From: an uncultured virus (IMG/VR IMGVR_UViG_3300009605_000001)
Lineage: Duplodnaviria > Heunggongvirae > Uroviricota > Caudoviricetes
Length of the DNA stretch: 20,000 nt
Virus record (IMG/VR): IMGVR_UViG_3300009605_000001
Direction: 5' to 3' (one strand)
This document shows positions 1 to 19,540 of this stretch, in pieces (the first letter of the stretch is position 1; every line of letters starts with the position of its first letter). The notes beneath the pieces are model-generated. The model saw only the letters and a program-made list of their open reading frames with translations, did not search any database and was not told the origin of the DNA. A program made the translations under genes and the position numbers.

Positions 1-486
1 GGTAACCACTACTGGTTCACCATTAACTCGCGTGCCTCTCTTTTTTAAGGCAGCAGCAAACATACCCTCTTCACTCTTCTCACCGAGTTTTAATCCTTTA
101 AGCAAACTATTTAAAGTCCAGTTTAGACTTTGTGTAATGTCACCACCTAAAAACTTAGAATCAGCGAGCATGTTGTTTTGCATTAAGTCAATACTAAGTT
201 CAGCAACTATCTGCGCAGTATTAAGATCATTAGCAAGGATACCTAACTTTCTAAGGTCAAAACTATTTCCATTATAAGTAACTACCTTGCCTCCCGCTAA
301 TAAATGCTGCTTCAACATCTTTAATAAAGCTCTAGCTTCACTTCCGCTTACTGAACGAGTAGGCGAGAAATGCTTACCCTTTTTAAACCCCACTCTTCCT
401 GCTGCTTCAAGTGTTCTTTCAACACCACCAATACCTACAATACGTTGTTCCAAGTCCATCGTAGTTTCAATATCAATAGATATAAC
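1..486 (-). other. DEDD/DnaQ-superfamily (RNase H-fold) 3'-5' exonuclease domain within the giant ORF, truncated by the window edge
   Basis: Exo I: VISIDIETTMDLEQRIVGIGGV (D3301 at 474-472, E3303 at 468-466). Exo II: KVVTYNGNSFDLRKLG (N3368, D3373 at 258-256). These are followed by SIDLM and WTLNSLLKGLKLGEKSEEG, in the order expected for YprB/RNase_H_2-like or polymerase proofreading exonucleases. Exo III would lie beyond base 1. Confidence 0.8.
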
Positions 487-3400
487 ATTATCTGTATCGT
501 ATATCCAATTAGGGTTGCTTTGGATTTCAATAATATTAGCTGCTTCAGCTTCATCTAAACCTAGCGATGTTAAGATTTCTACTGCTTTGGTAGGATTATG
601 TTGAGACCACATAGTTCTTTCTGGTGCAGCCCTAGCCATAATATTCATCTCAAGCAAACCTAAACTAGATAGTCTCTTCATAGCTGTAGTAATTGGAGAG
701 ATTAAAGACTCAATAAAGAAGGGTAATGCATTAGGTCTAAGTCCAGCATCTGGTCTATAATAATTAATCCAGTCTACAACTCTAGGTTTAATATTACCAG
801 ATGAACGAGAACCATCAACAAGCATATGAGCAACGGTGTGTCCTGATTCAACACGATCTACTATAATCTCCATTGCTTCACTTAAGACTCTTTCTCTGTT
901 CATCTTTTCAGTTTCACTGTAGCCGAAGTAATCAGCCATCTCTTCAGCATCAGATCGAACTAACTCAGGCTTACCTTCGGCATTAGATCGATAGCGACCT
1001 GTTGGCTTGTTGGTACGCATCGCGGTTTCTATTCTTTCGATAAAAGGATAGTTCTTATGTGACGAAAGCATCAGTAAAGCACCCATTGGTGTAATACCGA
1101 GTTTCATGTTTGTTCCGATTACCGTTCTTGGAACTCTCATAAGCATAGTAAAGGGGCCACCCATAGGATTACGTAAAATCATTTTATCAGTACGTTCATC
1201 CTTCGTTGGCTGCTGCTGTATTAACTTAACAAGGTCATTTCTACCCTCAACACTCTCTACAATAAAATCAAAGGAGAATACAGGATCATTTGCTAGTACA
1301 GCTTTCTCTCTAGCTACATTAATAATAGCTTCTCTGTGATCTGGAGGAATAGCGTTAAAGGATTGTATATCTCTTTGATTAGCAATAACTCTTAATTGTT
1401 TCTTTAGTGCGGGCTCCTTAACAATACCTATATATGTTTCTATAGCTTCAGATATATACCCATCCCACAGTACTCCTACAAGAAACTCCAACTCATCCAC
1501 AGACTGAACAAGTAAGGGATGTATGGCCGTCTCTTCTAGTTTAATTGTTTCGCCCGGATTAACCCCCTCTTCAATTATAAAGTGCTCTGTAGGAACTAAG
1601 CTTTTTTTCAAAGCTTTGTGAATAAGGGTTGGTCCGGATAAGACAGAGAATGGATTATTCTCCGAATATGGACTTGTCAGGATATCATATAGCGTTCTAT
1701 CTGCTAAGTCTGGATTTAAAATACCAATTTCATGTCCCTTAGTTTCCATAAGTAAGGAAGACATCTCTTTGTATCTAATATCCCGAGATAATTGGAACAG
1801 CGCGTGGAATCCTTCGAGGTATGTATTACGGGCTTGTAGTAGTTTCTCTTCGTTAGTTAGTCCTTTATCTCCATAGCGTACAGCAGAAATGATCTGGTCC
1901 ATTTCATGTTCAAGTTTTTGATCAAACCTATATACTAAATACAAGTACGGTACCATTTCTGGATCAAGCATCTCTGCCTCAAAGCCACGTTCTATTGCCC
2001 ACTTACTCATCTTCATCTCAACAACATTAGCTACCATCTCAGGTGCATTAGCATCTAATCCCATAAGATAGTCTAGATAATCAGACTTAACATCTGGACC
2101 CATTGGAAGAGTTTCTCTATTCCAAGGTTTCTCGAATCCTCTACTAGTTACTGGAATTAAGTGATCAGGGTTTTCTAAGGGTTGGTCTAACATAGCCGAT
2201 ACTTCTTCAATAGGACTCATCATCTCTCGTTCAGCGGCATGATAAGCTTTATTCTGAAGGTATAGGTTGCCCTTATTGTGATAAGGCATTCTCCTAGTTT
2301 CAGGAGCCCAAGACATGTATCCCCTTGGTTTGTCTGTAGACTCGAATACCATATCTTCTGTATCGTGTCGTAGTTCTGTCATTGTATGTTCTGCGGACCC
2401 TCTGAAGGTCATAGGATGTCCTGCGACTGGGACCAGTAAACCTATACCCTTAGAGAAATAATCTATGCTTGCTTGGTTTCGAGAACCATCAGCATTCCTA
2501 ACACTATCTTGTTGTAGTCTTTGCGCATTAGTATGATCTATAGCAGCTTCTTGAGAATGCTCCCACCACTGACTCAATACTTCGGCTTCGAGTTCATCCA
2601 TATTATCTTCAGCTTTATATTTTGACAGAGGCGGCTTCTCGGGTTCTGTAACTCTAAGAAGCATTTCATTTCTCATCATAAGAACAGCAATAGTATGATC
2701 CATTCTCTTGTGCCACTCCGCTACTTCAGCGTCATTATCAAAATCAACCATTCTCATTATGGGGTTGCCATATTTATCTAACCTTACCTTCCCATTTTTA
2801 TCCCTAACCGGAATCTTTTGATGAGGATTATCTTCCATTCTCCACTGACCCAACGGAGATTCGCCTTCTACGTCTACAAATACTTGCTTACCGTTTACAT
2901 ATTCGTAGGGATTTTCAGACCACTCCATGATCTTTCTACCAATCTTAGCAGGGTTATCCCAATCTTCATCTCTAATCTCTTCTGCTACGAAACTTTTAAA
3001 CGCATCTTGATTAGTTTGGATTCTAGCAAACATCGTGTTGTGATGGTGTCTATTCATATTAGAACTTGCAGAATAGGTTCTATAACTCTCAAGACCGGGT
3101 AAGAAGATTTGATACAGAATAAAGTTCTGAATTCCAAGAAGATCTTCTTCATTAAATCTCTGGTGATTAGTTGCTGCTTGTGCCTTTAATACATCTACAG
3201 CAACTCTGAACCCCGTAGAGTTTACTGTATTTAATGCTCTGAATAATTGATTATGTTTCCAGTGCATACCCTTTGGTTGCAGTAATTGGCCAACCTCTTC
3301 CCTTTCAGCTAAAGTTAGCTTTCCTCCTTCTCCCGACTTTGCCCTAGCATCTGCTTTCCTAATGATTGCGTCAGCTTTCATCAACCTACTATTCTTATAC

Positions 3401-6400
3401 TTCTCCTTAAATGCTTCTACAGTCATCTGAACTCTTTCGCCATCCGGTCCTATCATCATCTCACGCTTAGCTAACATAGCAATATTTAGATCCAGTTGTC
3501 GGCGTAAATAATCTCTTTTCATAGCGGGGTTATTTTGATCTGTTTTCTTAATCTCCTTGTTCCGCATACTCTTTACAGTTGAAATCCAATCTGTTATATG
3601 CCTATCTGTCATGTTTTCGTGCATCGACAGAATTTTTCTTGCTTCTTCCCGAAGACCCTCAATACCCAAAGCTACATCAATAACAGCAGCGTTCTCACCC
3701 GCTATATGGTCAAATATAGAATGTCCAAACAAAGCCATAACATGTGATATACCTTCAGATTGATCCTTAAAATTAAAACCAAACTCTTGCCTCAGCCTAG
3801 TCAGGATACCTACAAACATTGGATCGGTTTGTAGTTCTACCCAGCCTTTCCATCCCATAGTATATAGCCTACGCATAACTTCTGGTTTCCAGAATTCACG
3901 CATCAGCTTCATCTTCCTAACCATATCAGGATCAGAGCCTTCATTACTAACGTAATCAGTATACTTAGTATGATCATCGATTCCCAACGTAGCTAACTGA
4001 TCATAAAACGTAACCATTGGAGAGAGAAGTTCGCCATATTCTGGGTGTGCTAAAGCCTTTCTTCTAACGGTTTCAGCAAAACCTAAACCAGCTCTGATAT
4101 AATAATCTTCAGCCTCAATAGACATATTCATTTTATTCCTTAACTCACCCATAGCGGTAATAGCTGCTTCGCTACCGAGACTTAGAATCTTAGTTACAAA
4201 TAAACCATTAAACTTCTTATCCAAGTAAGTCTTTGGTGAAAGGATCCTTTTATAGAACTCTGGGTTTTCCCAATACTTTGGCCCAAACTCTTTATAATGT
4301 TCTTTTGCATAGGCTTGTTCTGCTTCGGTAGCCTGTTGAATAACATCATTGGCTAATCCTTCTAAGTGCATGTTCATGCTTTCTAAAGCAAGTATAGAAG
4401 AAATACCACTCATTGGAACAATAGTAGGTAAGCCTGTAGTAAGCTCAGGGTGTATCATTTTAAAAGCTGCATCACCCTCTGAAGTATAGACTAACCCCGG
4501 ACCAGCCGCCCAACGAGCATCATGGAGGAAAGCATAAGCAATATTTGCTGTATCTAATAGAACCTCAGAAAGAATATTCTTAAGTTCTTCTCTAGTAGTA
4601 ATTCTATCGTTTAGTCTTACATTAATAATAGGAGGCAATAACCTAGCATCTGGTTGAAGACTTCTAGAAACAGGTCTACCCGGCACAGCACCATCTTTAT
4701 CTTCTAGATAAGCGTTGTATTCTATAATATCGTTCTCATCAATCTCTTCTGTAAAGATAAACTCTAATCGTTTCCTTACAATAGCATCTTCAATCACAAG
4801 AGCAACAGCCTCAGGTCGTTCTGGAGCAAAGGAAGTCATGTGTCCCCGTAACATCGGGTGTGTCCGGACTGTCTCTCCTTCTTGCGGCTCATCAAAACGA
4901 TTCTCTTCTTTTCTTTCTGATCTATATTCTGGGGATTTTCGTCTCTTGGTAACTATTTCTTTAGTTTTTAGTCTGGTTACTAAAGCAAAGTCAACCAGTT
5001 CCCAACCAAGCCGTCTTGCTGGTTGCCAGCCCCGAGTACCGTCCCCCATACTAATGATCTCGTCTCTAGTAATTAGGGTGTGTTCATTATCACCCTCTGC
5101 AAGCCTATCAAGAATTATACTAGCTATTCTATCTAGGTCTTTTAAGTCTTCTGGAATCTTAAAGTAAGCATATATATCTTTCTTCTGTCTTTGAGATTGC
5201 ATAAAGAGTACTTCTAATTGCTCAACTATACCCTTTCTAACCTCCTCAAGATATTTCATCTCTGCTTCTGCTCTTGATTCCGGATCATCTAGATCAAAGG
5301 TAATTGTTTGGTCAAGATCGGGAGAAAGATTATCTGTTAAATCAATTAGGAAACCATACTGATTAAACAAATCATCATCGACTGCTCTCGACGCTTTCAT
5401 AAGTCTATCGGTAAACGCAATGGCAGTATATAACCCAATCTTAGATTTAGGATCTCTATCATAAACCATAACATCTTCTTCTGTAGCCCTAGTTTCAGCA
5501 TTCTTTGCTATTACTGCCTGATGTGCCGTGTCTCGTTTTTTGATAAAGGTTACTAATCCTTCATCCCCCTTGAAGTCATGCAACAGACTTTTTAAAAGGT
5601 TCTTAGGAAATCCACCTTCCCCTGCTAAAGTAAGGGCTCGAACATCCTGTACAAACCCCCAATCTGTTAGATCTGGGCTAACGAGAGTCTTCCCTTCAGC
5701 TTCAAGGCGGTTATTGATGCCCGAGATATATCTAAATAATCCTAACTGACCTTCTTCTGACTCGAAAGCCTTAAAGAGTTTGTGTATAATTTGCCTTGCT
5801 TCTAGTTCGTTAATACGGCCATCCTGAAGTGCCGTCCTAATTTCTGCAACCCATGAATTAGCTTCGTGGATTCTCCACTTCTCCCCCTTTTCCTCAATCC
5901 TCTGAAGAACCTTTTGAACCTTTGCATCACCTTCTTTCGCTACAAGTCTCCGTCCTCTAATGCGGCGAACTAAGTCTGTGAGAGACTCTTTTGAGATTGC
6001 TTTAAGATCACCATTAGCTCTCATTATTCTACGAGTAACTAAGGCAATAAGTTTATCTAATCTAACAAACAAAGTATCATACTCAAGACTCAAATCTTCC
6101 ATCGTTCTGTTACTAGGAAACTCCTCGCCTTCTGCATTAACAATAACTTCTCTAAAGACTGCATCATAGATACCATCTGGGAGACAACTATCAACAACGA
6201 AGATTGGAACCAATCCTACTTCAGGATCTAAGGCTCTACCCCACGGTCCTTCAAGTACAGATATTAATTGCGAATGAAACTCTTGAAGTGCCATCAACTC
6301 TTCTGCTAATGTAAATGCATACTCTTCAGGAACTATTCCTCTATCTATACTTTCTTTGTTTATCGCGGTTTTGTTTGCAGCTTCAGTATTAGTTCGATCA

Positions 6401-9400
6401 ATAGCTGGAGCTTCTGTAGCTTGGTTAATCCCCCACTGAGAAGCAGTAATTGGCCTGTTACTTACACGACTCCAATTAACATCTTTGAAGTAGTTCCTCT
6501 TAATAGACTTTATATATGTCTCTCGTTCTTTAGCAGCCTCTTCAAATATAGCTAATGCTTCTTCCTTACTATAAACAATTGGATCCTCATCGCTATCTGC
6601 TCTCTCATCTATTTCTTTCTTAACCCTGTCTTTGGTAGCACTTTCAGGTAAGAACGCTCCTAATAAGTCTTCAGCAGAAATAGTCTCTGTGGTTTCGAGT
6701 TTCTTTGTTAATACATGTCTTCGTATTGTTAAAGTCTTTAGTTCTTTATTACGATAATCTAATACTGCCCTGATTGTTTTCAGCTGATAAGACGCAAAAC
6801 CATATTTCCTAGCCATATCTAGTTTGTATCTTAAGGATATCTTTTCACGCTTTCTATCTAACCTCTTCATATCCTCTTCTAATTTCTCCAATTGTCTATA
6901 TTCATCTGAAGGTTGAATTACCTTAGTAAATATTTCATTCTGCATTCCAATAAGACCCAAAGCTAATGCTCTTAAGTCATCAAGCTTAACCCGCCCACTC
7001 TTTATACCTTCTAGGAGACTAGCTTTATTTTTTTCATTACTCTTTATAGTTTCCCATGTCTGTACAGCCTCTTCAAGATCGGCCCATTCTTCAGGAGAAA
7101 CATCATTCTTATCCATTTCCCCCTTTTGTCTCCACTTTGGGTGTTTCCCTGCTTCTGCTTCTGCCGCAATCGTATCAACAAAGGTTTTACTTAAGGTGCC
7201 AACTACTAGAGAAAGTTTAGATATCCTTTTACCCTTTTCACCTACATACTTTGTATCAATAGCATCTCGTATCTCTTTAACCTTTTCAGTTAACTCACCG
7301 ATCTCCTTCTTTACGTCTCTTAAAGCTTCACTATCGGATTCAACATCCTGCCACGCAGCAATACTTTCATCAAACTCGGAGATTAACTCGTCCATTTCAG
7401 CAATAAGTTCGTCAAGTTTATTCCTTATTTTTGGATCGGTAGTTCCTTCTCGTTCTTCTTCAAGAGCTGCCTTAAGGCTTTCAGCTTCCTCTTTCTCTTT
7501 TGTTGTTTGGACAACTGCGGATTGTTGCTCTCCTTCTTGTGCTCTAAGACTATCTATCCTAGCGTTTACAAGACCCTCCCCCTCAAGATCTTTCTTTCGC
7601 CATGCTTCCTCTTCTTCAGTTAGTTTTTTGTCGGCAATAATCTTCTTAGCAATACGATCAGAAATCTCCCAGTCAGTCTCTGGAACCTTATCAGTTACCT
7701 CCTTGATCTCAGCATCAATCTTTTTAATAGCTACAGTAAGTTGCCTAACTGTTTCCTTCTTACTTGCAAAATCTTCAAGTTCAAACAACTCTTCTACCGT
7801 AGTAACTTTTTCTCTGTCTATCTCAACTTTTTCCATACCCTTTTTTCTCTTGTGAGATATTTTACCAGTCTTAGAGTGCTTCCAATAAAAACCCATACGA
7901 AATATTTCACCAGCAAAGGATTCTACTATACCGGTAATTTGTGCTTGTATCTTACCCTTCCTCTCAACTTTATCTTGTATCCCCGCCATTGCCTTTTCTC
8001 GTTCAGCTTGAGCTACTCCAGCCTCCTTTAGTCTCTTGGCTCTTTTTCTCGCCGCCCTCATTAGGCTAACCTTACGTCTAAGTGTAGACGGTTTTTTTGG
8101 AGCTAGCTGTGGTGACTCCTTTATCTGTTTTTTAATAATACGGTCTACTGCTTCTTTATGCTCATTATATATCTTCTCTTCTTCCTTAGTTAATGTCACA
8201 TCACCTCTTTTTTTAATAGCAATATCAACTAAGACAGAATCTTCCTCCTCCTCCTTCGCTTGAATTAAAGAGTCAACATCTTCAGCCTTTTGTTTAAGTC
8301 TTTCTAACTCTGTTGTATTAGCCTCTAAAGAAAGTTTAAGTTTCTCTTCCTTTTCTCTAAATTTTTCCTCAACCTCAACCTCAATATCATGAACTACTTT
8401 AAGCTTTTCTGCAGCTGTGGCTGTATCAAAATTAAGTCCTTCTTTATCCATCCTCACACGAACCATACTCTCTACATTATCATCAACATATATTTCCCAA
8501 AGATCTTCATCAGAAATTTCATCTGTTTGATTAAGCCACTCCTCTGGGGTAAAGTTAGTTCCGTTTTCCTCATTCAACTTACGTACATATCTTGCCACCC
8601 GAAGCCTAGTTTTTGCTATAGCTGTACGTTCTCCTAGTTGTTTAGCTAAAGTCTGGGCTTCTGGTCCTCCTAATCTTTGAATTAGTCTATTAGCAATCTC
8701 ATCTAGAAGTACATCATCAGATATCTTCTCCCCATCCAAATCATTTTTAATTTCTTCTAACAGACTAAGAATACTGGTTACATCATCATATGTATTAACC
8801 CCGTCTCTGATCTGCCAAGGATCAAGAACAAAACCAAGAGGTCCATCCATTAAATCATTTAAGTCAATATCTCCACCTTCTTGTCGAATAGAGTTTAAGG
8901 AATCAACGACTGAATCACCTAACTCATAATGCTCTATAGCTGCTAAGATAGGATTATCACTACCCCTTGCGGCTGCCTTCCAAGCTTCTGTAATACTAGA
9001 CCTAAGTCTAGCACCAAGTGGAAGACTCATAATACCTTGACCAATTATACCACCAGCTGCTGAAAGAGGAGCGTTTACTGTATACTTCATAGCTGTTCCA
9101 AGGATTGGGTTTGCTACGACAGAGAACACAGCCTCCATCTTTGCTTCAGCCCAGATACCACCTAAATCATACTCATCAATAAACCCTCTTTTAATTTTCA
9201 AAGTTTGGTTTATACCTTCAGCTAAAGCACCCTCAACGAAACCCTCTCCTGCATTAAGAGGAGAACTATATAACATTCCCCTTAAGCCTTTTGTTTTAGC
9301 TAGCCTTTTACCAAGATCTGGGGCAATCTTACTAAAGATAGTTGTGCCTATGTTTTCTGGAAGCCAGTCAACAATCTTAGCTATCTTTGTTGCATGTGTA

Positions 9401-10374
9401 GAAAGCTTAGTAATATTAGTAATCCCTTTAGCAATAGTAGCAGCTCCGTGTACTTTTTTAAGTACCCGACCCGCAAAGAAGCCAGCCGCTATTGGCGCAC
9501 CAACTCCAAGTGTTGCTGCTGTAATACCTAAACTAATAACAATAGAGGCAGGCATGTCTGGATCATTTATTAGACCGTCTCTAATAAAAGGCCACGCCGT
9601 AAGATTCCAAAACTCTTCCATCCCTTCCATCTCTTTTTGGTGGAAGGAGATAGATTGCGCCACTGCCTTATGATCAATAGCCTCATTAATAAAATACATA
9701 AAGGCATCTGAGTTAGTAGCATCTTCTGTTATTTTCTTTAGTCCTTCTCTACCACCAAAATTAAGTTCAAGATAAGCAAGATGACCGGGGCTAGTATCAG
9801 CCATAATATCCAACATCTTATCAGCACTATAGTTTTCTTGTACATACTCAAATAAATCTTCCGGCTGCTGAAACATTTGGGCAGCAAAACCAGAACCAAC
9901 ATCAACATATCTACCAATATCTTTCCAATCACCACCAAACTTAAGCCAGTTACTTTTGGTTGATAAGAATGGCTCAAGAAAGCCTTTAGATGTATCAGAT
10001 AATCCGGCTTCGCCCTTTGGATCTTCTATTAGTTCTTGACCCCGTAAAATTCTTTTTGCTGTTAGGTTCGATCTCGCTTGATTATATGTAAAGATACCTC
10101 TATGATAATCATCTGCAAACGCCATTGATGTTGCAATATTAGCTGGTAGTGTTCCAAACGCATAACCATCCTCATAAGGTATTAGACCCGCACCATACTG
10201 TGATTCCCTACCTTGTTCATAAGGATCAAAAGGAAGTTCTTTTGCTAATCCCCATGCCTCATTTAGTCTCTTACTAAAAGGCGATACCCCTTCTTCATCC
10301 ACCGCGTACTGTGACATATAAAACTCAGATAGCCGTGGCAGTTTTGTTGGAATATCAAACTCTGATCGTGGCAT
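1..10374 (-). CDS. Giant internal virion (ejection) protein, >3458 aa, 3' end outside the window; putative virion RNA polymerase (single-subunit T7/N4-type motifs) fused to a DEDD 3'-5' exonuclease domain
   Basis: ATG at 10374-10372, with SD AAGGAG 6 nt upstream. Hand translation (MPRSEFDIPTKLPRLSEF...FAAALKKRGTRVNGEPVVVT) found no stop codon down to base 1, which explains its absence from the ORF track. I saw only one Cys (6184-6186). It is the last and largest gene of the internal-virion cluster, the position of T7 gp16. The ORF itself is near-certain; the function is inferred from motifs. Confidence 0.9.
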   Translation of the reverse strand, partial: MPRSEFDIPTKLPRLSEFYMSQYAVDEEGVSPFSKRLNEAWGLAKELPFDPYEQGRESQYGAGLIPYEDGYAFGTLPANIATSMAFADDYHRGIFTYNQARSNLTAKRILRGQELIEDPKGEAGLSDTSKGFLEPFLSTKSNWLKFGGDWKDIGRYVDVGSGFAAQMFQQPEDLFEYVQENYSADKMLDIMADTSPGHLAYLELNFGGREGLKKITEDATNSDAFMYFINEAIDHKAVAQSISFHQKEMEGMEEFWNLTAWPFIRDGLINDPDMPASIVISLGITAATLGVGAPIAAGFFAGRVLKKVHGAATIAKGITNITKLSTHATKIAKIVDWLPENIGTTIFSKIAPDLGKRLAKTKGLRGMLYSSPLNAGEGFVEGALAEGINQTLKIKRGFIDEYDLGGIWAEAKMEAVFSVVANPILGTAMKYTVNAPLSAAGGIIGQGIMSLPLGARLRSSITEAWKAAARGSDNPILAAIEHYELGDSVVDSLNSIRQEGGDIDLNDLMDGPLGFVLDPWQIRDGVNTYDDVTSILSLLEEIKNDLDGEKISDDVLLDEIANRLIQRLGGPEAQTLAKQLGERTAIAKTRLRVARYVRKLNEENGTNFTPEEWLNQTDEISDEDLWEIYVDDNVESMVRVRMDKEGLNFDTATAAEKLKVVHDIEVEVEEKFREKEEKLKLSLEANTTELERLKQKAEDVDSLIQAKEEEEDSVLVDIAIKKRGDVTLTKEEEKIYNEHKEAVDRIIKKQIKESPQLAPKKPSTLRRKVSLMRAARKRAKRLKEAGVAQAEREKAMAGIQDKVERKGKIQAQITGIVESFAGEIFRMGFYWKHSKTGKISHKRKKGMEKVEIDREKVTTVEELFELEDFASKKETVRQLTVAIKKIDAEIKEVTDKVPETDWEISDRIAKKIIADKKLTEEEEAWRKKDLEGEGLVNARIDSLRAQEGEQQSAVVQTTKEKEEAESLKAALEEEREGTTDPKIRNKLDELIAEMDELISEFDESIAAWQDVESDSEALRDVKKEIGELTEKVKEIRDAIDTKYVGEKGKRISKLSLVVGTLSKTFVDTIAAEAEAGKHPKWRQKGEMDKNDVSPEEWADLEEAVQTWETIKSNEKNKASLLEGIKSGRVKLDDLRALALGLIGMQNEIFTKVIQPSDEYRQLEKLEEDMKRLDRKREKISLRYKLDMARKYGFASYQLKTIRAVLDYRNKELKTLTIRRHVLTKKLETTETISAEDLLGAFLPESATKDRVKKEIDERADSDEDPIVYSKEEALAIFEEAAKERETYIKSIKRNYFKDVNWSRVSNRPITASQWGINQATEAPAIDRTNTEAANKTAINKESIDRGIVPEEYAFTLAEELMALQEFHSQLISVLEGPWGRALDPEVGLVPIFVVDSCLPDGIYDAVFREVIVNAEGEEFPSNRTMEDLSLEYDTLFVRLDKLIALVTRRIMRANGDLKAISKESLTDLVRRIRGRRLVAKEGDAKVQKVLQRIEEKGEKWRIHEANSWVAEIRTALQDGRINELEARQIIHKLFKAFESEEGQLGLFRYISGINNRLEAEGKTLVSPDLTDWGFVQDVRALTLAGEGGFPKNLLKSLLHDFKGDEGLVTFIKKRDTAHQAVIAKNAETRATEEDVMVYDRDPKSKIGLYTAIAFTDRLMKASRAVDDDLFNQYGFLIDLTDNLSPDLDQTITFDLDDPESRAEAEMKYLEEVRKGIVEQLEVLFMQSQRQKKDIYAYFKIPEDLKDLDRIASIILDRLAEGDNEHTLITRDEIISMGDGTRGWQPARRLGWELVDFALVTRLKTKEIVTKRRKSPEYRSERKEENRFDEPQEGETVRTHPMLRGHMTSFAPERPEAVALVIEDAIVRKRLEFIFTEEIDENDIIEYNAYLEDKDGAVPGRPVSRSLQPDARLLPPIINVRLNDRITTREELKNILSEVLLDTANIAYAFLHDARWAAGPGLVYTSEGDAAFKMIHPELTTGLPTIVPMSGISSILALESMNMHLEGLANDVIQQATEAEQAYAKEHYKEFGPKYWENPEFYKRILSPKTYLDKKFNGLFVTKILSLGSEAAITAMGELRNKMNMSIEAEDYYIRAGLGFAETVRRKALAHPEYGELLSPMVTFYDQLATLGIDDHTKYTDYVSNEGSDPDMVRKMKLMREFWKPEVMRRLYTMGWKGWVELQTDPMFVGILTRLRQEFGFNFKDQSEGISHVMALFGHSIFDHIAGENAAVIDVALGIEGLREEARKILSMHENMTDRHITDWISTVKSMRNKEIKKTDQNNPAMKRDYLRRQLDLNIAMLAKREMMIGPDGERVQMTVEAFKEKYKNSRLMKADAIIRKADARAKSGEGGKLTLAEREEVGQLLQPKGMHWKHNQLFRALNTVNSTGFRVAVDVLKAQAATNHQRFNEEDLLGIQNFILYQIFLPGLESYRTYSASSNMNRHHHNTMFARIQTNQDAFKSFVAEEIRDEDWDNPAKIGRKIMEWSENPYEYVNGKQVFVDVEGESPLGQWRMEDNPHQKIPVRDKNGKVRLDKYGNPIMRMVDFDNDAEVAEWHKRMDHTIAVLMMRNEMLLRVTEPEKPPLSKYKAEDNMDELEAEVLSQWWEHSQEAAIDHTNAQRLQQDSVRNADGSRNQASIDYFSKGIGLLVPVAGHPMTFRGSAEHTMTELRHDTEDMVFESTDKPRGYMSWAPETRRMPYHNKGNLYLQNKAYHAAEREMMSPIEEVSAMLDQPLENPDHLIPVTSRGFEKPWNRETLPMGPDVKSDYLDYLMGLDANAPEMVANVVEMKMSKWAIERGFEAEMLDPEMVPYLYLVYRFDQKLEHEMDQIISAVRYGDKGLTNEEKLLQARNTYLEGFHALFQLSRDIRYKEMSSLLMETKGHEIGILNPDLADRTLYDILTSPYSENNPFSVLSGPTLIHKALKKSLVPTEHFIIEEGVNPGETIKLEETAIHPLLVQSVDELEFLVGVLWDGYISEAIETYIGIVKEPALKKQLRVIANQRDIQSFNAIPPDHREAIINVAREKAVLANDPVFSFDFIVESVEGRNDLVKLIQQQPTKDERTDKMILRNPMGGPFTMLMRVPRTVIGTNMKLGITPMGALLMLSSHKNYPFIERIETAMRTNKPTGRYRSNAEGKPELVRSDAEEMADYFGYSETEKMNRERVLSEAMEIIVDRVESGHTVAHMLVDGSRSSGNIKPRVVDWINYYRPDAGLRPNALPFFIESLISPITTAMKRLSSLGLLEMNIMARAAPERTMWSQHNPTKAVEILTSLGLDEAEAANIIEIQSNPNWIYDTDNVISIDIETTMDLEQRIVGIGGVERTLEAAGRVGFKKGKHFSPTRSVSGSEARALLKMLKQHLLAGGKVVTYNGNSFDLRKLGILANDLNTAQIVAELSIDLMQNNMLADSKFLGGDITQSLNWTLNSLLKGLKLGEKSEEGMFAAALKKRGTRVNGEPVVVT
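3427..4680 (-). other. Single-subunit RNA polymerase-like palm/fingers region (motifs A and B) within the giant ORF
   Basis: Motif A: YLD2052KKFNGL (4221-4219; cf. T7 D537GSCSG, N4 D559GVTNG). Then ED2090YY (cf. T7 QD569IY). Motif B: R2159EFWK2163PEVM2167RRLY2171TMGWKGW (3900-3841; cf. T7 R627SVTK631RSVM635TLAY639GSKEFGF). Then LFGHSIFDHI (cf. T7 YMAKLIWESV) and GPDGERVQ (cf. T7 TPDGFPVWQ). All are colinear. Confidence 0.7.
6781..8400 (-). other. Long Glu/Lys-rich predicted helical/coiled-coil linker in the giant ORF (approx. aa 660-1200)
   Basis: Heptad-like charged segments such as EEKFREKEEKLKLSLEANTTELERLKQKAE, LRDVKKEIGELTEKVKEIRDAI and YRQLEKLEEDMKRLDRKREKI. Boundaries are approximate. 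Confidence 0.55.
9469..9549 (-). other. Uncharged Gly/Ala-rich hydrophobic segment (candidate membrane-inserting helix or hairpin) near the N-terminus of the giant ORF
   Basis: ASIVISLGITAATLGVGAPIAAGFFAG (27 uncharged residues, approx. aa 276-302), preceded by NDPDMP and followed by basic RVLKK. Further G/A-rich stretches follow (GEGFVEGALAEG; LSAAGGIIGQGIMSLPLG), as is typical of podovirus ejection proteins. Confidence 0.6.
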
Positions 10375-10412: not shown

Positions 10413-13400
10413 TCATTGGTGTCTATTGCGTATTGTCTCCTGAATATCAGGCAATACCTCCCCGAGTTTTTCGCCAATTTTTTCGCCAATTTTTCCAGCA
10501 GCTGTTTCGGGTATGGCCTCTTTTAGAATGTCGACAAAGACTTTCATATGTGGGGGTAAGACTGCATAAGCAGCCTCCCAAGTAGCTGGATCATTCCTAA
10601 TTGGTTGCAGGGTTTCAATCAGATTATTCCACCAATGAGGATACTCCCCATTATTATAGTATCTGTATTGTTCAACGCTATCCTTTATGTTTGTTTTCAT
10701 CTCTTCTATTAATGCGTCTCTCTCCGTCTTATCTCCTGTTGCACCAGCAATAGTACTCAATGCTTGATTAATAATCATGTTTGTACGGCCTACCGGTCCA
10801 TGTTTGGGTGCTCCTGCAGCGACATCTATAGCAAACCCAACAAGCATAAGAATTTTTCTTACTTTTCCACCTGTAACTTTATCAAGATTTTCCTCCAAAC
10901 CCTCCAGATCAAGACCACCTTCGTCGATGATCCCCCAATCCTCTAAGAGCTGTACTGTGTTTGCTAGAGCCAGAGTATTCATAAATACACCCTCAGCAAT
11001 AGCCCCACCTAACGTGCTGTTTAGTTGATCATCTGCAAGAAGTTGATCTACCCTTTCTTGCTGTGCTACTCTTCGATCTATCATATCATTACTCAACTCC
11101 CAACCAAGACCCCGTATAATTCTTTCTCTGCCCCCAATACCTTGTACAACAATATCAAATTTTGGATTAGCTCCCCGTTTTCCTCTTCTTCCAGCAGGAT
11201 CTGGGGCTCTTACTTCTGTAATAAGCCTAGAGCTAGTTCTTATCATTAATCTACCATAATCGTCTGTTCCATACCCGGATTGAAACAGCCCCATCTCTTC
11301 AGCGTAAGCTTCTATCTTTTCCCCGCCCACTCTATCATCTAGTATAAACTTACGCATAGCACCTATGGACCAGTCTAGCATAGTTCTAGCTGTCCACTTA
11401 TTGTCTTGACTTCCCCACGATGCTCTTTCTTGTTCCCACATAGGTTCCAGTATTTCTTCTTTAAATACTTCAAAACCTTTAGGATCATCGGGATCCATCC
11501 CAATAGCGGGCAAATACACGCCAAAAGTATTTACCATGTTTTGCCACGTTATCAGGTTTATATGCTCTTCTGCTCCCTCTACTAAAGATAGGTTCTCTCT
11601 AGTTCGTTCTCTTGCAGGAATCCATACAACATGAGATGAATTATCTCCTGTTACATAGTGAGATACGGTTCTAGCATCTTTTTCATCCTTATCTAAAGAA
11701 GGCAGAATTTTATGAATACCGATTCCCTTACCCGGCATAAAACCCATTTCAATAGTCTGACCGTTATCGTCTCTTCTTACAGGCACCATGGTAACTTCCA
11801 GTAGTCCTAACGAACCCTCAATTTGGTTAATTATTTGGGACATACGTAATTTAGTACCAGAGGTACTACGAATACTGTGTGAAAGTATCATAGATTCCAT
11901 CATATCTCTGGTTGTCGGATTATTCGTGTACATGTTAAAAATAGAAAGAACTTTGCCTCGGGATGTTGGGTGCTCTACGCCAAGAAGAATTTCTTTTGAG
12001 TTTTCACTTAACGCGTCATACTCAGTCTTCCACTGTTTCCCGTCATCGTCTCCATGATATATTATACGCAGATCCTCTAAATCATTCTGCGCTCTTGGTT
12101 TTAAGTTCCACGACTGATCTCCGGGCATCCATGACCAGTCCCTTGTTGCTAGTGGTCCAGTTAGTCTATTTAAAGAATGTTTCATAGCCTGATACGAGGT
12201 TTCTGTTGTTCCTTGAATCACCTCTGGGCTTACTAAATACATTAGTGTATTTATCTGATGAAGATTGTGATCACTCATACTATCGAATAAAAGTTTCATA
12301 GCATACTCAGGACTAACGGAAACAGTTTTACCATCCTGAGAGATTTCCATTGTCTCCAGTTCTGGTGTCATAGTATATCGTACAGCTTCATCTAAAAACT
12401 CCCACATAGACTTTCCCATCGCAGCAGAAGAGTCGTTCAAAGCAACACCAAGGTTTGCAGATACACCCCTAAGATATTCTGCAAAGAATGAGTCATCGCC
12501 CAAACCCTCAAATATTCTATTAATTAGATTCAGACCATCGCCTCTAGTAGCTCCCGCTATTCTTCTTAGGTCTCCTAATACAGCTAAAGACACCAGCATT
12601 TTAGAAGCAGCTTCTGGGTTCGTTAGAAGCTCTTCTGTATCCATTAATGCTCCTGTTCCATATTCAGATTTTAAAAGCTGCATAGACTCTATCATAGCGT
12701 CTCCATATGCTCTATAAAATGAAGGAGTCTCTTTATATTTGTGTATGGAGTTGTCATGCATAATCCAAGCTCCAATACCGTACATCCTTAGGGGATCCAT
12801 ATCCACACGTTGTCCGTCCTCTCCTACATCAAAGAACTTAATACCTAAGTCTCCATTTTCCATAATATCTTCTATATGAAGGATATTAATATCTACATCC
12901 TCAGGTAGTCCCATGCCTGCACGCAGCATAGCATTAGCATCAGCATTTATTTGCTTAACTGCAGCTATAATACTTTCCTGAACCTGTGGAGCTAAAGCAT
13001 TCCAGCCGTTATCTTTAATAAATCTACTAAGATGAGCACCATCATCACTACTGGCAGGGTCTATAAGGTACGACTCCATAGTACTGCCCCATGAAACTTT
13101 AGTACTCCGCGCTGCTTCTGACATAGATTGCTTATCTCTTACATTATCCCATATCCTATCGGTTTCTTCACTAACCTTAAACGCCTTAAAACTATCACTG
13201 TAGGTTCGCAGGATAAGCATATTTGTATCATGAGAGAACTCACCCTGACTTGCTCGTAGTACATAGTTTTCAATAGCCGTATTCCACTCACTTATAGGAG
13301 TATCAAGATCTCTTACATTTGGTATATCCTTTAGGTTTATAATTTCGCTAAATATTCTAGCAGTATTCCAAATCCTCCTTTCATCTAAGGTTCTAGGCCT

Positions 13401-14705
13401 ATTGATCCTTTGTTTCTCTGCTAACAATTCTAGCATCTCTTCGTTGTTTAAACTATACTCTACTAATGATGCATCCATATCCATGAGAATACTATCATAA
13501 TACGCAGTCATTGGATCATCTGGATCCATCTTATCAATAGCCAACGCTAACGCTTGTCGTTTTATTTTCCAAGTGTTTGCTTCCATATCCTGTATACCTA
13601 AGTCTAAGAACATATCTATAATATGTTTAGCTTCTGTTGTTTTAGCTGGTGTCTCTTCCCTTCGTCTTACTTGATTATCTAGCATAGCTTGCGCATTATC
13701 ACCAATATCTTTAGTTAAGAATATTGGCTCAGTTAGATCTGGCTTTTGGAACGTTATATATGATGCAATAGCATCTTTAAGTTTCCCTATATTGCCAAGT
13801 AACTCTTCAGACTCTATGAGGCTAGTACGCTCTTCTTCACTCATAGCCTGAATCCGCTCACCTAAAAATCCATCTTCTCCAAAGAAGTCTCCAACCTCCG
13901 TTAGATTATTTACTTGAAACTGGACAAACTCATCCCACTCTTCTTCCCCCCATATTTGTGCAAAGTAATCTGTAAGCGGGGAATATTCACCCTCTACAAA
14001 TAATTCTTCTACCAACAACCAAGTGTCACACTCTTCTACAATCTGAAGATCAAAATCATGATCTTGCTCAACCATACGGACTTCATTATTAGCTTTTTGG
14101 TGTTCTTGTCTTCTGATTTGACTAGACATATTATCTACCCACTTAACAACAGTCTCTTCATCAATCGGTCCAGTTCCTCTCATTAAAGCTTCTGCGGGGC
14201 CGAGAGGTATGGTTTTACCTGTTTCATCAAACTGGTGAGGCCCTGCGATCCCCAGCTTGTGCAGTCCATAAGGATCTCTAACATTAGGAGCAACGCCACC
14301 AGTGTCCTGATAAAAAATATCTAGACCGGTTTCAACAAAAACTTCTCTTCTTAACCTTTCCTCTTCGGGCTTCAGATGACCCGTCCATCCATACGCACTG
14401 GGCCGCTGATGTTCCCACTCCCCACTCTCCAAAAGCCTTGCTCCAGTGTCCGTACTTCCTCTTGTATAACGCCAATTTTGTCTCGTAGAAGAAAGAGTTT
14501 CAGTAGGTACTGTTAACATCTCATCTAATTTTTGCTGTCCTTTAGCTTCTCTAAGTCTTGTATTCCACGGAGGCTCGGGAGACCTCATCATCAGACTCCT
14601 TCGCGACATAGGTGTTGATTGCTCTAGATTATTTTTTCTGTTATTCCCTAGCATATTATCTATGAGTGTGTCATATTTCTTATCATTAATTGGTAAACTA
14701 GGCAT
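10413..14705 (-). CDS. Large internal virion protein, 1430 aa (positional analogue of T7 gp15; no recognisable catalytic motif)
   Basis: Long ORF with SD GGAGGT and a TGATG overlap with the upstream gene's stop. It is acidic and helical-looking, has a single Cys, and sits directly before the giant protein. Function is assigned by position and composition only. Confidence 0.7.
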   Translation of the reverse strand: MPSLPINDKKYDTLIDNMLGNNRKNNLEQSTPMSRRSLMMRSPEPPWNTRLREAKGQQKLDEMLTVPTETLSSTRQNWRYTRGSTDTGARLLESGEWEHQRPSAYGWTGHLKPEEERLRREVFVETGLDIFYQDTGGVAPNVRDPYGLHKLGIAGPHQFDETGKTIPLGPAEALMRGTGPIDEETVVKWVDNMSSQIRRQEHQKANNEVRMVEQDHDFDLQIVEECDTWLLVEELFVEGEYSPLTDYFAQIWGEEEWDEFVQFQVNNLTEVGDFFGEDGFLGERIQAMSEEERTSLIESEELLGNIGKLKDAIASYITFQKPDLTEPIFLTKDIGDNAQAMLDNQVRRREETPAKTTEAKHIIDMFLDLGIQDMEANTWKIKRQALALAIDKMDPDDPMTAYYDSILMDMDASLVEYSLNNEEMLELLAEKQRINRPRTLDERRIWNTARIFSEIINLKDIPNVRDLDTPISEWNTAIENYVLRASQGEFSHDTNMLILRTYSDSFKAFKVSEETDRIWDNVRDKQSMSEAARSTKVSWGSTMESYLIDPASSDDGAHLSRFIKDNGWNALAPQVQESIIAAVKQINADANAMLRAGMGLPEDVDINILHIEDIMENGDLGIKFFDVGEDGQRVDMDPLRMYGIGAWIMHDNSIHKYKETPSFYRAYGDAMIESMQLLKSEYGTGALMDTEELLTNPEAASKMLVSLAVLGDLRRIAGATRGDGLNLINRIFEGLGDDSFFAEYLRGVSANLGVALNDSSAAMGKSMWEFLDEAVRYTMTPELETMEISQDGKTVSVSPEYAMKLLFDSMSDHNLHQINTLMYLVSPEVIQGTTETSYQAMKHSLNRLTGPLATRDWSWMPGDQSWNLKPRAQNDLEDLRIIYHGDDDGKQWKTEYDALSENSKEILLGVEHPTSRGKVLSIFNMYTNNPTTRDMMESMILSHSIRSTSGTKLRMSQIINQIEGSLGLLEVTMVPVRRDDNGQTIEMGFMPGKGIGIHKILPSLDKDEKDARTVSHYVTGDNSSHVVWIPARERTRENLSLVEGAEEHINLITWQNMVNTFGVYLPAIGMDPDDPKGFEVFKEEILEPMWEQERASWGSQDNKWTARTMLDWSIGAMRKFILDDRVGGEKIEAYAEEMGLFQSGYGTDDYGRLMIRTSSRLITEVRAPDPAGRRGKRGANPKFDIVVQGIGGRERIIRGLGWELSNDMIDRRVAQQERVDQLLADDQLNSTLGGAIAEGVFMNTLALANTVQLLEDWGIIDEGGLDLEGLEENLDKVTGGKVRKILMLVGFAIDVAAGAPKHGPVGRTNMIINQALSTIAGATGDKTERDALIEEMKTNIKDSVEQYRYYNNGEYPHWWNNLIETLQPIRNDPATWEAAYAVLPPHMKVFVDILKEAIPETAAGKIGEKIGEKLGEVLPDIQETIRNRHQ
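10467..10494. repeat. 12-nt tandem repeat (tttttcgccaat, approx. 2.3 copies) encoding KIGE-KIGE-KLGE at the C-terminus of the 1430-aa protein
   Basis: Exact copies at 10467-10478 and 10479-10490, then a partial copy; in frame. Confidence 0.8.
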
Positions 14706-15694
14706 CAGCTACCTCCCTTCAGCTTACGTAGGCGTGCAAAAAGTAATTCCTTTTGTTCCTTGAGTCGTTTCTCTGCCAAGCTACCCTCAAGAACAACCTT
14801 CTGATATTGAGAAAGATCTTCAAGTCTAGCTATAGCTTGATCTCTATCCAGCTTACTAATTTCTTCATTTGTTATCCATTTATATTTTCGCTTAGGATCT
14901 TCATAAATGTTTTCTATACCAACTACCCCAAAACCAGTACGTTTTTCTACGGGAAGGATACGTTCTGTATTAAGAATCTCAGTTAATTCTTCTTCATATG
15001 CATCTCGTTCCGCTTTTTGTGCAGCTATATCAGGGGCCGAAAGATCTACTTGTTTTATAATCTCATCAACGCTTCTCATCAAACCGATTCTCTCCTGCTC
15101 TTTCTGAGCTAAAGACTCTTGTAGAGCTATACTTTGTCTCTTATTAAAAGCATCTCTACGAGCCTGTATCTTAGCATCCTCATCAGCTTCCTTAGCGTCT
15201 TCCTCATACAGTTGCCGTTTTGCTTCTCTGTCCTCATCTTCCCCTCTAGCTACCCCTATTGCGGCTATTAAATCTAATTGCTCTTGAGCTAAGTCCTTTG
15301 CTTCTTGCATATTATTTGTATGCCCAACGAAATCTCCTGCTATAGCTTCCTTTCCCTCCGCAACAGTCATGATTCTGCCATTGATTCTAGCATCATTCTC
15401 CCCAAGAGTATGGCTATACTCCTGTGCTTCTACCCCTGCGTCATTGCCCGCCGCCACTCTATCCTTTTTGTTTTGTTCATCGTTTTTTCTCCAGTAATCA
15501 AAAAGCTTAGTAGCCTGACTTAGGAAAGCAGCTCCGTTTTGCCATGCTTCCATCATTTTCGTATGATAGAATATAGCAGCTCCGTTAGCGTTTTGTGTAC
15601 GCTGTACCTGACTAACTGGAGTCAGTCCCATTACCTTTAAGGATCTATCTACTTCCGGAGTACCCGGAGGATTAATCTGCATAACACTAGACAT
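14705..15694 (-). CDS. Putative internal virion protein, 329 aa, coiled-coil rich
   Basis: ATG at 15694 after AGGGGGG-TAAAAA, overlapping the upstream stop (ATGTCTAG). It has no Cys, a Pro-containing extended N-terminus and E/K/A/Q-rich helices. Confidence 0.65.
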   Translation of the reverse strand: MSSVMQINPPGTPEVDRSLKVMGLTPVSQVQRTQNANGAAIFYHTKMMEAWQNGAAFLSQATKLFDYWRKNDEQNKKDRVAAGNDAGVEAQEYSHTLGENDARINGRIMTVAEGKEAIAGDFVGHTNNMQEAKDLAQEQLDLIAAIGVARGEDEDREAKRQLYEEDAKEADEDAKIQARRDAFNKRQSIALQESLAQKEQERIGLMRSVDEIIKQVDLSAPDIAAQKAERDAYEEELTEILNTERILPVEKRTGFGVVGIENIYEDPKRKYKWITNEEISKLDRDQAIARLEDLSQYQKVVLEGSLAEKRLKEQKELLFARLRKLKGGS

Positions 15695-16715
15695 TTTTTA
15701 CCCCCCTTTTTTCTGAGGTTTGAAGTAGACCTTCCCATTTTTTAATAAAGTCAAATATAAGATCGTGTTCATTAGTATATATGTTTTGATCAATAGCTTT
15801 AGTTACAACCTTTTCAAGTCCTTGATTAACGGCTGCTACTGGATCAAACTGTAACTGGGCATAGTCTAAGATAATATTATTATGGTGCTCAGTAAAGTTA
15901 TTACCTAGTGTATCTAGCTTATCAAACAACACTCTTTTGTTTTCCCTATCTAATAATTGATACTCTTGTTCAGCTTCTTTGTATTTAGGAGCTAGCATCT
16001 TATCAATCATATTATAGTTATCAGAGTATAGTATGTATTCTTCTTGGGGATCTATAGGATTATAGTCTTCTTGTACAAGAGAATATATAGGAACCAGAGC
16101 ACCTTGAACAGATACAGCAATCCTACCTGCCTCATCCGTATGTATCTCATCTGGAGTATATCCATACTGTATCGCAGAGTATAAGTCTTCAGAGTGTATC
16201 CTTCGGCCTACAGCATGAGATAGTTTAAAATCATCTCTTGTAGTAATGTGATTAACTGCGTCTTCTGTATTTAGTTTATTATTAATTCTACTAAGCTCTA
16301 AAGCCCTACCTTCTCCCATTATACGACTACGCTCAATATCCATTTCATATTCTTTTTGTAGCCACGAAGGCCACGAAGAAGCGTTATTCTTAAAGTAATC
16401 TCCCCGTTCAGAATCTGATGGAAGCTGGTCAAGCTCTCTATTTATACGGTTAGTTGTATCACTTTTAAAAGATGAGCCCGGATATGCCTGCTCTTCTAGT
16501 TCCCACATTTTATCATTAATATCTGGATGAGAGATAACGTCTCTGGTTTCTCGTTTGAATACTCTATAACGATCCTTTGGACTTAGGTTTGCAGGTATGC
16601 TGTTTAATGCAGTCTTACTAGCATCTAGCTGGGCTTTAGCAAGAAGCTGCTTAGGTGTAACAGTTTCTCGCGGAGTACCTTTAGCTATCATTTGAAGTGT
16701 ATTATAATCAGCCAC
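15687..16715 (-). CDS. Putative internal virion protein, 342 aa (start revised to GTG at 16715)
   Basis: SD GGAGGAGG (16728-16721) lies 5 nt before GTG 16715, and GTGGCTGA overlaps the upstream stop. The track's TTG start at 16730 overlaps that SD and is less likely. No Cys. Confidence 0.65.
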   Translation of the reverse strand: MADYNTLQMIAKGTPRETVTPKQLLAKAQLDASKTALNSIPANLSPKDRYRVFKRETRDVISHPDINDKMWELEEQAYPGSSFKSDTTNRINRELDQLPSDSERGDYFKNNASSWPSWLQKEYEMDIERSRIMGEGRALELSRINNKLNTEDAVNHITTRDDFKLSHAVGRRIHSEDLYSAIQYGYTPDEIHTDEAGRIAVSVQGALVPIYSLVQEDYNPIDPQEEYILYSDNYNMIDKMLAPKYKEAEQEYQLLDRENKRVLFDKLDTLGNNFTEHHNNIILDYAQLQFDPVAAVNQGLEKVVTKAIDQNIYTNEHDLIFDFIKKWEGLLQTSEKRGVKNV

Positions 16716-17403
16716 TGCTACCTCCTCCAATTAAACTATAATAATTATTAGTAGTATCACCACCTGCTTGGGACGCGCCAAGTGCACTGACAGCGTAGCC
16801 CATAGTATTAGCAGCACCACCAATTATTCCAGCATAGAGAGATTGCTCAAATGCAGCGGCTGGATCTGGTCCACCATATCGTGCAGGTATAAACGGCACA
16901 TGTTCGTTATATCCAAAGTCTCGTCCTGCTAAAGCTTGGGCTTGTTTTCGCTCAGATCCAATAAGCTGGTTCGATACATTAATCCTTAGTCCACTCATAG
17001 CTTCTTGTGAAGCTTCGTTTTGTTGACGCAGCAAAGCCCTAGCAGTACCAGAGTTTGGATCAATACCCTGACCCGACAACCTAGAGTACAACTCATCCTG
17101 AGCAGCCTTATGTTGTTTGCCATAGGCTCCAGCTTGGTTATCCCAATTATACCTAATATAGAAATCCTCTTCAGCTCTTCTTTTGTTGGCAGTCTCAGCA
17201 ATCATCTTATTATTAAACCATCTCATAGCGTTTTGCTTAGCTACGTTTCGGTTTTCTATTTGATTCTGCCATCTCCTCTGGAACTCAGCTTCCTCAAAGT
17301 TAGCCCTTTGGGCTGCAGCTTCGGCTGCTGATGCGTTTGCTCCGGCCTCTGCCTGCATGAACTGCAGTCCAGCCATAACTGGGATTCCCCATATCAGTGG
17401 CAT
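16708..17403 (-). CDS. Internal virion protein resembling T7 gp14 (ejection protein), 231 aa (start revised to ATG 17403)
   Basis: SD GAGGAGG precedes ATG 17403. It has a hydrophobic N-terminus (MPLIWGIPVMAGLQFM), an Ala/Gln-rich helix, a central SGQGIDPNSGTA Gly/Ser turn and a G/A-rich hydrophobic C-terminus (AGIIGGAANTMGYAVSALGASQAGG). This is the gp14-like architecture. No Cys. Confidence 0.7.
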   Translation of the reverse strand: MPLIWGIPVMAGLQFMQAEAGANASAAEAAAQRANFEEAEFQRRWQNQIENRNVAKQNAMRWFNNKMIAETANKRRAEEDFYIRYNWDNQAGAYGKQHKAAQDELYSRLSGQGIDPNSGTARALLRQQNEASQEAMSGLRINVSNQLIGSERKQAQALAGRDFGYNEHVPFIPARYGGPDPAAAFEQSLYAGIIGGAANTMGYAVSALGASQAGGDTTNNYYSLIGGGSSG

Positions 17404-19199: not shown

Positions 19200-19218
19200 T
19201 ACTTTACTTCCTTAGTTA

Positions 19219-19515: not shown

Positions 19516-19531
19516 GATCAATATCCTTTCT
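19512..19531 (-). repeat. 20-nt direct repeat AGAAAGGATATTGATCATGG (SD plus start codon), downstream copy
   Basis: Identical to 19834-19853. Confidence 0.9.
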
Positions 19532-19540
19532 GTTGGTTGT

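Follow-up and report, generated by a model that had tools for sequence, protein, structure and literature searches.

What does the most conserved part of a 5,359-residue phage protein do? The stretch of DNA analysed here, called the window throughout, is 20,000 nucleotides long and corresponds to bases 26989-46988 in a linear IMG/VR virus record of 53,605 bp (IMGVR_UViG_3300009605_000001), which is estimated to be 79% complete. Window 1..10374 (minus strand) encodes the N-terminal 3,458 residues of the protein, and an initial annotation had read one part of it, at window 3427..4680, as a highly divergent RNA polymerase (RNAP) of the T7/N4 type. We think it probable that this stretch is instead the most conserved core of a giant, polyvalent internal virion protein that would be ejected into the host, and that the core is an enzyme or a ligand-binding site of unknown fold.

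A giant gene and its invariant core

The open reading frame (ORF), taken from an ORF list and its translation, continues past window position 1 to genome position 21283. In the full record it spans genome 21283-37362 and accounts for 30% of the sequence. An identical 5,359-aa protein (P0003) is present in the protein collection and was found on 3 contigs, which, together with intact relatives of 4,662-5,182 aa on independent contigs, rules out a mis-assembly or a gene fusion.

A phmmer (HMMER) search with residues 1750-2650 against 1.84 billion representative proteins returned 13 proteins, mostly of 4,700-5,000 aa or pieces of such proteins; among them were P0004 and four more giants of 4,704-5,012 aa, along with fragments. 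Another member, P0005 (4,993 aa), was found by a separate protein look-up, and scans of loci added two giants of 5,182 aa and 4,662 aa. No giant member is named, and none has a Pfam domain precomputed. Searching 50,697 phage records by tblastn with the flagged stretch and with the C-terminal 2,059 aa gave no match, and an ESM Atlas look-up of residues 1919-2460 returned a best score of 0.83 and no family. This small, uncharacterised family is seen only in a deep-branching group of T7-like podoviruses of marine type, whose genomes measure ~63-68 kb.

Mapping the protein to its homologues by BLASTP revealed three conserved modules: N-terminal (residues ~40-690), middle (~1640-3240) and C-terminal (~3790-5300). 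The middle module (window 655..5454, minus strand) is common to all family members, as seen by phmmer, in the BLASTP map and in alignments. The flagged core, residues 1899-2316 (window 3427..4680, minus strand), lies within it and holds the invariant set: D1952 (in FIHD), G1981-x4-VP, D2052-x3-[NS]-G, K2062, D2090-x-Y2092 and R2159-x3-K2163-x-P-x-M-x3-Y2171. The alignments also show a second conserved patch at window 3076..3231 (minus strand), comprising L-N2382-x2-N2385, F-x3-D2411-x-L-G2414, P2426 and S2430-x-R2432; its D2411 is kept in 8/9 members and displaced by one residue in P0006.

To score conservation, giant homologues sharing 20-50% identity with this protein were aligned with MAFFT (9 members), and 1200 columns (residues 1661-2860) were compared. 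Only 38 of the 1200 columns are invariant among the 9 members, and 16 of these are Gly or Pro. Three of the 84 Asp residues are invariant in 9/9 members (D1952, D2052 and D2090), R2159 is one of 3 invariant Arg among 82, K2163 is one of 2 invariant Lys among 71, and Y2092 and Y2171 are the sole invariant Tyr among 42. D2052, D2090, R2159, K2163 and Y2171 are also retained in a separately found clade, L018. Because they are invariant in 9/9 members that are only 20-50% identical, with 38/1200 columns invariant, the flagged residues are far from chance. Judged by their conservation, they are functionally special and are the functional heart of the middle module.

All motifs listed in the initial annotation do occur in the minus-strand ORF at the residue numbers it gave: D2052-KKFNG (window 4219-4221), D2090-YY, R2159/K2163/M2167/Y2171, G2174 and G2177, LFGHSIFDHI at 2215 and PDGERV at 2310. 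The four residues on which its polymerase reading turned, D2052, R2159, K2163 and Y2171, proved to be invariant in the homologues and kept in L018. Its further signatures fared less evenly. Gly at D+5 is near-invariant, although the P0009 clade has Ala there. Met at K+4 (M2167) is kept in 10/11 sequences, as is R2168, but is not invariant. The glycines at Y+3 and Y+6 are present here, whereas most members have Gly at Y+2/+3 instead. The helix LFGHSIFDHI is not a conserved feature, as D2222 and H2223 vary among members, and the PDGxxV motif sits in an insertion that other members are without.

The host of the giant gene, as read from its genome sequence, is an uncultured T7-like podovirus. All genes in the record lie on one strand, and Pfam and PHROG searches identify a T7-type primase-helicase, a gp2.5-like single-stranded DNA-binding protein (SSB), a nozzle protein and a T7-type large terminase. 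The record also contains an 813-aa T7-type RNAP (PF00940, E 3.5e-82), a 1,265-aa fibre or spike gene and a family A DNA polymerase gene that is truncated by the record end. The terminase (565 aa; window 17502..19199, minus strand; phrog_38 E 1.2e-91, PF22530 E 9.1e-34) is at most 40% identical to the terminases of 2,676 matching phage records, and therefore the phage is deep-branching.

The nozzle gene adjoins the fibre gene, and the position between them where T7 carries gp13-16 is empty. After the terminase follow five tightly packed genes encoding proteins of 257, 347, 329, 1,430 and 5,359 aa, none of which matched a Pfam or PHROG family. Because the usual gp13-16 position is empty, these five genes would be the expected home of the internal protein genes. 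A contig that carries a 4,732-aa giant relative (L007) has the same gene order after the terminase, and a 62.8-kb genome that is 93% complete (G001) reads portal, scaffold, capsid, tube, nozzle, fibre and terminase, then genes for 279, 354, 1,270 and 4,662 aa. The 1,430-aa gene thus has its syntenic counterparts in a 1,631-aa gene of L007 and the 1,270-aa gene of G001. The giant protein shows the features expected of an ejection protein, namely a location in the late/structural module, large size, a helical model and synteny across relatives. The model in question, an AlphaFold2 prediction for residues 1661-2860 from 15 sequences, is of low confidence (mean predicted local distance difference test (pLDDT) 56.6, predicted template modelling score (pTM) 0.32) and almost all helical.

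Two further sites in the giant protein resemble enzymes. A DEDDy 3'-5' exonuclease-like domain at residues ~3290-3530 (its first part encoded in window 1..507, the rest outside the window in L002:5573-6355; minus strand) matches PF13482 (RNase_H_2, DnaQ-like fold) with E 2.9e-4 in a scan of the whole protein; the domain alone scores 25.1 bits (E 1.9e-5), above the cut-off of 22. Its ExoI DxE, ExoII NxxxFD and ExoIII YxxxD motifs are kept in 4/4 members that have the domain. These members form a subclade of this protein, P0004, P0005 and P0014, and the domain is absent from other clades. An HExxH motif near residue 3872 (L002:4133-4825, minus strand) occurs as AHELAH in 6/12 family sequences scanned, and two of the relatives, P0013 and P0008, give weak SprT/M91-like matches there (E 0.004-0.07). 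In this phage the site reads AEEIGH (EExxH). Any peptidase at this site is probably inactive here because the first His of HExxH is replaced by Glu.

We propose that the giant protein would be packaged inside the capsid, as T7 gp14-16 and N4 gp50 are, and then ejected into the host with the DNA. Packaging and ejection would be the task of the N- and C-terminal modules, and the internal modules would be the "cargo" that works inside the cell: the conserved middle domain together with, in this subclade, the DEDDy exonuclease and, in most relatives, the HExxH peptidase-like site. Most likely, D1952, D2052, D2090, Y2092, R2159, K2163 and Y2171 would form a catalytic or a phosphate- or nucleotide-binding site. 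There is precedent for such cargo, as a passage of Hardies et al. describes internal virion proteins that carry cytoplasm-destined domains and places the N4 virion RNA polymerase (vRNAP) within a homologue of IVP-D (PMC4819975).

Several points weigh against this proposal. Comparison by hhalign with T7 gp14, gp15 and gp16 and with the N- and C-terminal parts of N4 gp50, used as single-sequence templates, gave probabilities below 1%, and PHROGs matched neither the giant family nor its neighbours. Hardies et al. call such proteins notoriously difficult to match (PMC4819975). Gene position, size and helical content make up the whole case for placing the protein in the virion. A protein of ~600 kDa would have to fit a T7-like capsid, and the proposal leaves the activity of the core undefined.

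How far the core resembles an RNA polymerase

The foremost rival explanation is the one advanced in the initial annotation, in which the giant protein is the virion RNAP of a new branch and has as its middle module a single-subunit RNAP of the T7/N4 type that has diverged strongly. In this scheme the Asp of motif A would correspond to D2052, the conserved DxY to D2090-x-Y, and the O-helix (motif B) to R2159/K2163/Y2171. Either D2411 (D-x-L-G) would supply the second catalytic Asp or, if the motifs were permuted to C-A-B, D1952 (FIHD) would. We regard this as unlikely on balance, a live minority hypothesis whose support lies at the level of motifs.

That support begins with the identity of the residues, since very few D, R, K and Y of the middle module are invariant and the five named ones belong to these. 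We aligned the polymerase domains of 8 N4-like vRNAPs and found R424, N432-P-Q434, E557, D559, G560, T562, G564, D610, Y612, R666, K670, P672 and T674 to be invariant, including both N4 residues, D559 and K670, that the initial annotation had quoted. The giant family presents D2052...G2057, D2090-x-Y2092 and R2159-x3-K2163-x-P-x-M in the same order as D559-x4-G564, D610-x-Y612 and R666-x3-K670-x-P672 of the N4-like proteins. The Asp-to-Lys distance claimed earlier is correct, at 111 residues for both (D2052 to K2163 here), and Pro at K+2 is common to the two. The phage's own T7-type RNAP reads DGKCNG...DLY...RKVTKRSTMCEPYG...IHDSFG, which agrees with the ordered pattern D-x3-[NS]-G ... D-x-Y ... 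R-x3-K-x-P-x-[MT]-x3-Y of the giant family. The O-helix pattern R-x3-K-x7-Y-G is present and conserved, with R2159, K2163 and Y2171 in 9/9 members and in L018.

A second source of polymerase motifs lies a few genes beyond the giant gene. Downstream of it and outside the window, a 627-aa ORF (genome G000 17492-19375, = L003:17495-19375, minus strand; P0019) encodes a hidden second single-subunit RNAP, here called RNAP2. The ORF itself has no Pfam or PHROG match, and by eye it contains IDKRGRRY, FDQGCSG, DAY, RTTAKRLARGGQYEAG and NHDGF (T/DxxGR, A, B and C). Its 602-aa counterpart in G001, to which it is related by BLASTP (E 5e-6), matches PHROG RNA polymerase families with E 1.8e-5 and 3.8e-5. 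In four records a copy of RNAP2 lies a few genes downstream of the giant gene, with counterparts at L038:356-2164 (G001) and L039:1234-3027 (G003), and the four-sequence RNAP2 set aligns with the T7-like RNAP set by hhalign over 242 columns (E 8.2e-5, probability 61%).

Position-specific scoring matrices (PSSMs) built from these proteins single out motif B. Scored by the N4-derived motif-B PSSM, the site takes first place in 5/11 and second or third place in 4/11 sequences, each with ~5,000 positions, and only 2/300 column-permuted PSSMs score as well. With the RNAP2-derived matrix the site comes first in 6/9 sequences, again equalled by 2/300 permuted controls. When the RNAP2 set and the middle module are compared by hhalign, the top local match places motif B on this site in exact register (E 0.53), and BLASTP against the N4 mini-vRNAP gives the identical motif-B register (E 1.1). 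The motif-B-like site, alone among the motifs, thus has modest statistical support, drawn from two separate polymerase sources.

Against this stand the tests made at the level of families. The profile check proposed in the initial annotation returned no match for the giant protein or for 8 relatives: PF00940 was not matched in residues 1-3458 (E<=1), in residues 3301-5359 (E<=0.001) or in the 8 relatives (E<=0.01), PHROG RNAP families matched neither the giant protein nor those relatives, and the N4 hidden Markov model (HMM) gave only scattered matches with negative scores in the giant family. Alignments of N4-like (8 sequences), T7-like (4) and RNAP2 (4) proteins gave hhalign probabilities below 2%; when each of the three RNAP sets was compared with the full-length giant family and with the family of the 1,430-aa neighbour, they stayed below 1%. 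A phmmer search of the PDB with residues 1-3458 found nothing at E<=10, and a profile of 4 full-length relatives gave two chance rows only. These negatives are weak, because hhalign has low power with shallow alignments and the known N4/T7 pair, run as a control, reached only E 0.0094 (probability 4.3%).

The other motifs also failed to gain support. A chain of all three motifs, searched in wide windows, scored no better than shuffled sequences in 10/11 members. For motif A, D2052-x3-[NS]-[GA] is invariant or near-invariant, but the maxima of the motif A PSSM fall off the homologous column in most members. The score of the DxY PSSM was reached by 50/500 permuted controls. Motif C PSSMs were not significant (74/500 and 121/300 controls); with the T7-like motif C matrix 11/300 controls reach the score, but its maxima fall elsewhere. 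A PSSM for the T/DxxGR-NPQ block (N4 residues 418-441; 270 residues upstream of motif A) was equalled by 258/500 controls, and the alignment has no invariant Arg at the expected T/DxxGR place. The T7-like motif-B PSSM ranks the site just 14th to 90th. Nor is there a canonical motif C, as no Asp is invariant within 700 residues after motif B and D2411 (D-x-L-G, 8/9) is the sole candidate. Both D2052 and D2411 are preceded by polar residues and not by the hydrophobic strand expected in a palm, and the low-confidence model has helices there. Around D2052 its pLDDT is below 50, compared with 63-82 in the motif-B helices. An IHD-like FIHD1952 does stand behind a hydrophobic run, 100 residues upstream of D2052, which would be a non-canonical motif order. 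Foldseek and VIA searches with this low-confidence model matched no polymerase fold.

The gene content of the lineage also bears on this rival. A T7-type RNAP of ~815 aa is present in all 3 giant-gene records that are at least 66% complete and is absent from two fragments that are at most 50% complete. By their sequence motifs and profile matches, then, the lineage encodes two recognisable single-subunit RNAPs, the 813-aa T7-type enzyme and the 627-aa RNAP2, and because it already has these two, the need for a third is lowered without excluding one. On the other side, an HExxH motif in one polypeptide with the module fits the N4-vRNAP-like polyvalent architectures described in part of PMC5512222. 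A somewhat less likely form of the rival would make the middle module a third, extremely divergent single-subunit polymerase within an ejected protein, with its palm motifs perhaps permuted (D1952 upstream of D2052 and the O-helix). If this were true, the phage would deliver a transcription or priming enzyme of its own to the cell in addition to the two RNAPs that it encodes, and this programme of three polymerases would be organised differently from the one in N4.

A third explanation, which we consider improbable, holds that the invariant residues serve an ejection-channel protein as structural or interaction contacts (salt bridges, or contacts to portal, core or DNA) with no enzyme involved, so that the likeness to a polymerase would be coincidental. 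Like T7 gp15/gp16, the model consists almost wholly of helices, and the T7 gp15-gp16 core complex occupies the top rows of a Foldseek search of the PDB, although these are not significant (E 0.41 and 0.47) and nothing was found at E<=0.001. The same low-confidence model searched against BFVD gave a best E of 0.031, and the rows were long helical virion proteins. No enzyme family was detected for the core, and the share of Gly and Pro among the invariant columns (16/38) is what a structural constraint would give. However, three invariant Asp, with Arg, Lys and Tyr sharing one helical face (i, i+4, i+12), all retained at identities as low as ~20%, are more typical of a catalytic or ligand site. 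Internal virion proteins are also said, in the cited passage of PMC4819975, normally to diverge very fast. Finally, a family A DNA polymerase was rejected, as PF00476 is not matched in the giant protein and the genome encodes its own.

Other regions of the locus

The remainder of the giant protein is organised around its conserved modules. The N-terminal module, residues ~1-690 in the BLASTP map (window 8305..10374, minus strand), contains a single hydrophobic, membrane-like segment at residues 278-300 in a hydropathy scan. It is followed by a highly charged and poorly conserved region, residues ~600-1473 (window 5956..8574, minus strand; composition scan and BLASTP map), whose Lys+Glu content is 25-32% in residues 600-1200. 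Residues 1474-1641 (window 5452..5955, minus strand) are an insertion peculiar to this protein, since residues 1-1473 and 1642-5329 match contiguous parts of P0004 and P0005 by BLASTP.

Just upstream of the giant gene, the 1,430-aa protein (window 10413..14705, minus strand) is a candidate internal virion protein, and the three genes for 329, 347 and 257 aa between it and the terminase (window 14705..17481, minus strand), which have synteny in L007 and G001, are candidates for small internal virion proteins. On the other side of the terminase, just upstream of it, two neighbouring genes at window 19219-19843 (minus strand) encode 100-aa basic proteins that both begin with MIM[GA]K. Neither matched a Pfam or PHROG family, and they may occupy the expected place of the small terminase subunit. 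In the early region of the record, two adjoining tRNA genes, Leu(taa) and Arg(tct), lie at genome G000 11282-11433 (minus strand).

The region beyond the giant gene includes several non-coding elements. A non-coding leader of 1.2 kb (genome G000 14895-16107, minus strand), after a strong terminator (16075-16047), contains a manA RNA motif (RF01745, 79 bits) and a match of 51 bits to the tRNA-like portion of the tmRNA model, along with several T-arm-like boxes and a direct repeat of ~73 nt (90% identical). ARAGORN called no tRNA in this leader, and one weak sigma-70-like site was seen there against 2.4 expected. Two copies of GGGTCACAACCCA[C/A]AGGAG precede the first two small genes that follow the giant gene (genome G000 ~20816-21282; rc 32324-32790); the element has a 4-bp stem and a 4-nt loop and lies beside the ribosome-binding site. 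A second repeat pair, TCATA[A/C]CTCTAACAC[G/A]AGGAG, precedes the next two genes. A search for promoter-like and hairpin repeats yielded only these two short repeats adjacent to ribosome-binding sites, with no 14-mer repeated three or more times, and no elements like the N4 hairpin promoters were seen.

Comparison with known systems

At 5,359 residues the giant protein is among the largest phage proteins seen. For reference, a statement in a 2013 paper calls the N4 vRNAP, at 3,500 aa, "by far the largest described" (PMC3821669). Its conserved core provides a short list for mutagenesis: D1952, D2052, D2090, R2159, K2163 and Y2171. A polymerase core would widen the single-subunit RNAP superfamily past the reach of profile methods; a core of another kind would be a new injected enzyme. 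The transcription programme of the lineage differs from the T7 and N4 models, because it carries a hidden second RNAP.

One comparison is with the T7 internal core (ejection) proteins gp14, gp15 and gp16 (IVP-B/C/D). Unlike these, the gene block lies after the terminase and not before the fibre gene, the protein is 4x the size of gp16, hhalign probabilities stay below the 1% given above, and the giant protein shows no lytic transglycosylase domain. However, the host phage is T7-like with an empty gp13-16 position, no candidate to replace it is seen other than the five genes that follow the terminase, and the model is helical, with the T7 core complex at the head of its non-significant Foldseek list.

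The polyvalent proteins of phages and conjugative elements offer a second comparison. According to the section of Iyer et al. 2017 cited here (PMC5512222), N4-vRNAP-like polyvalent proteins join metallopeptidase, ART and other domains. The giant protein and its relatives matched none of the PolyVal or LPD families in Pfam scans, and the HExxH site, weakly SprT/M91-like in relatives, is degenerate here. Like the proteins described in that section, the giant protein is a very large, late-region, multidomain protein with unrelated enzyme signatures (DEDDy and HExxH) and long helical linkers.

The vRNAPs of N4 (gp50) and other Schitoviridae, 3,500 aa long with the mini-vRNAP at residues 998-2103, provide the third. 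There is no detectable sequence, profile or fold similarity to them, and the giant protein is without the T/DxxGR-NPQ block and without a motif C of the F-D-G-M type. It is 1.5x longer, belongs to a T7-like genome with its own T7-type RNAP, and possesses an extra DEDDy exonuclease. Both, however, are giant single polypeptides encoded in the late/structural region of a podovirus, with a central conserved module between large flanks, and both display D-x4-G, D-x-Y and R-x3-K-x-P...Y in the same order and with the same Asp-to-Lys spacing.

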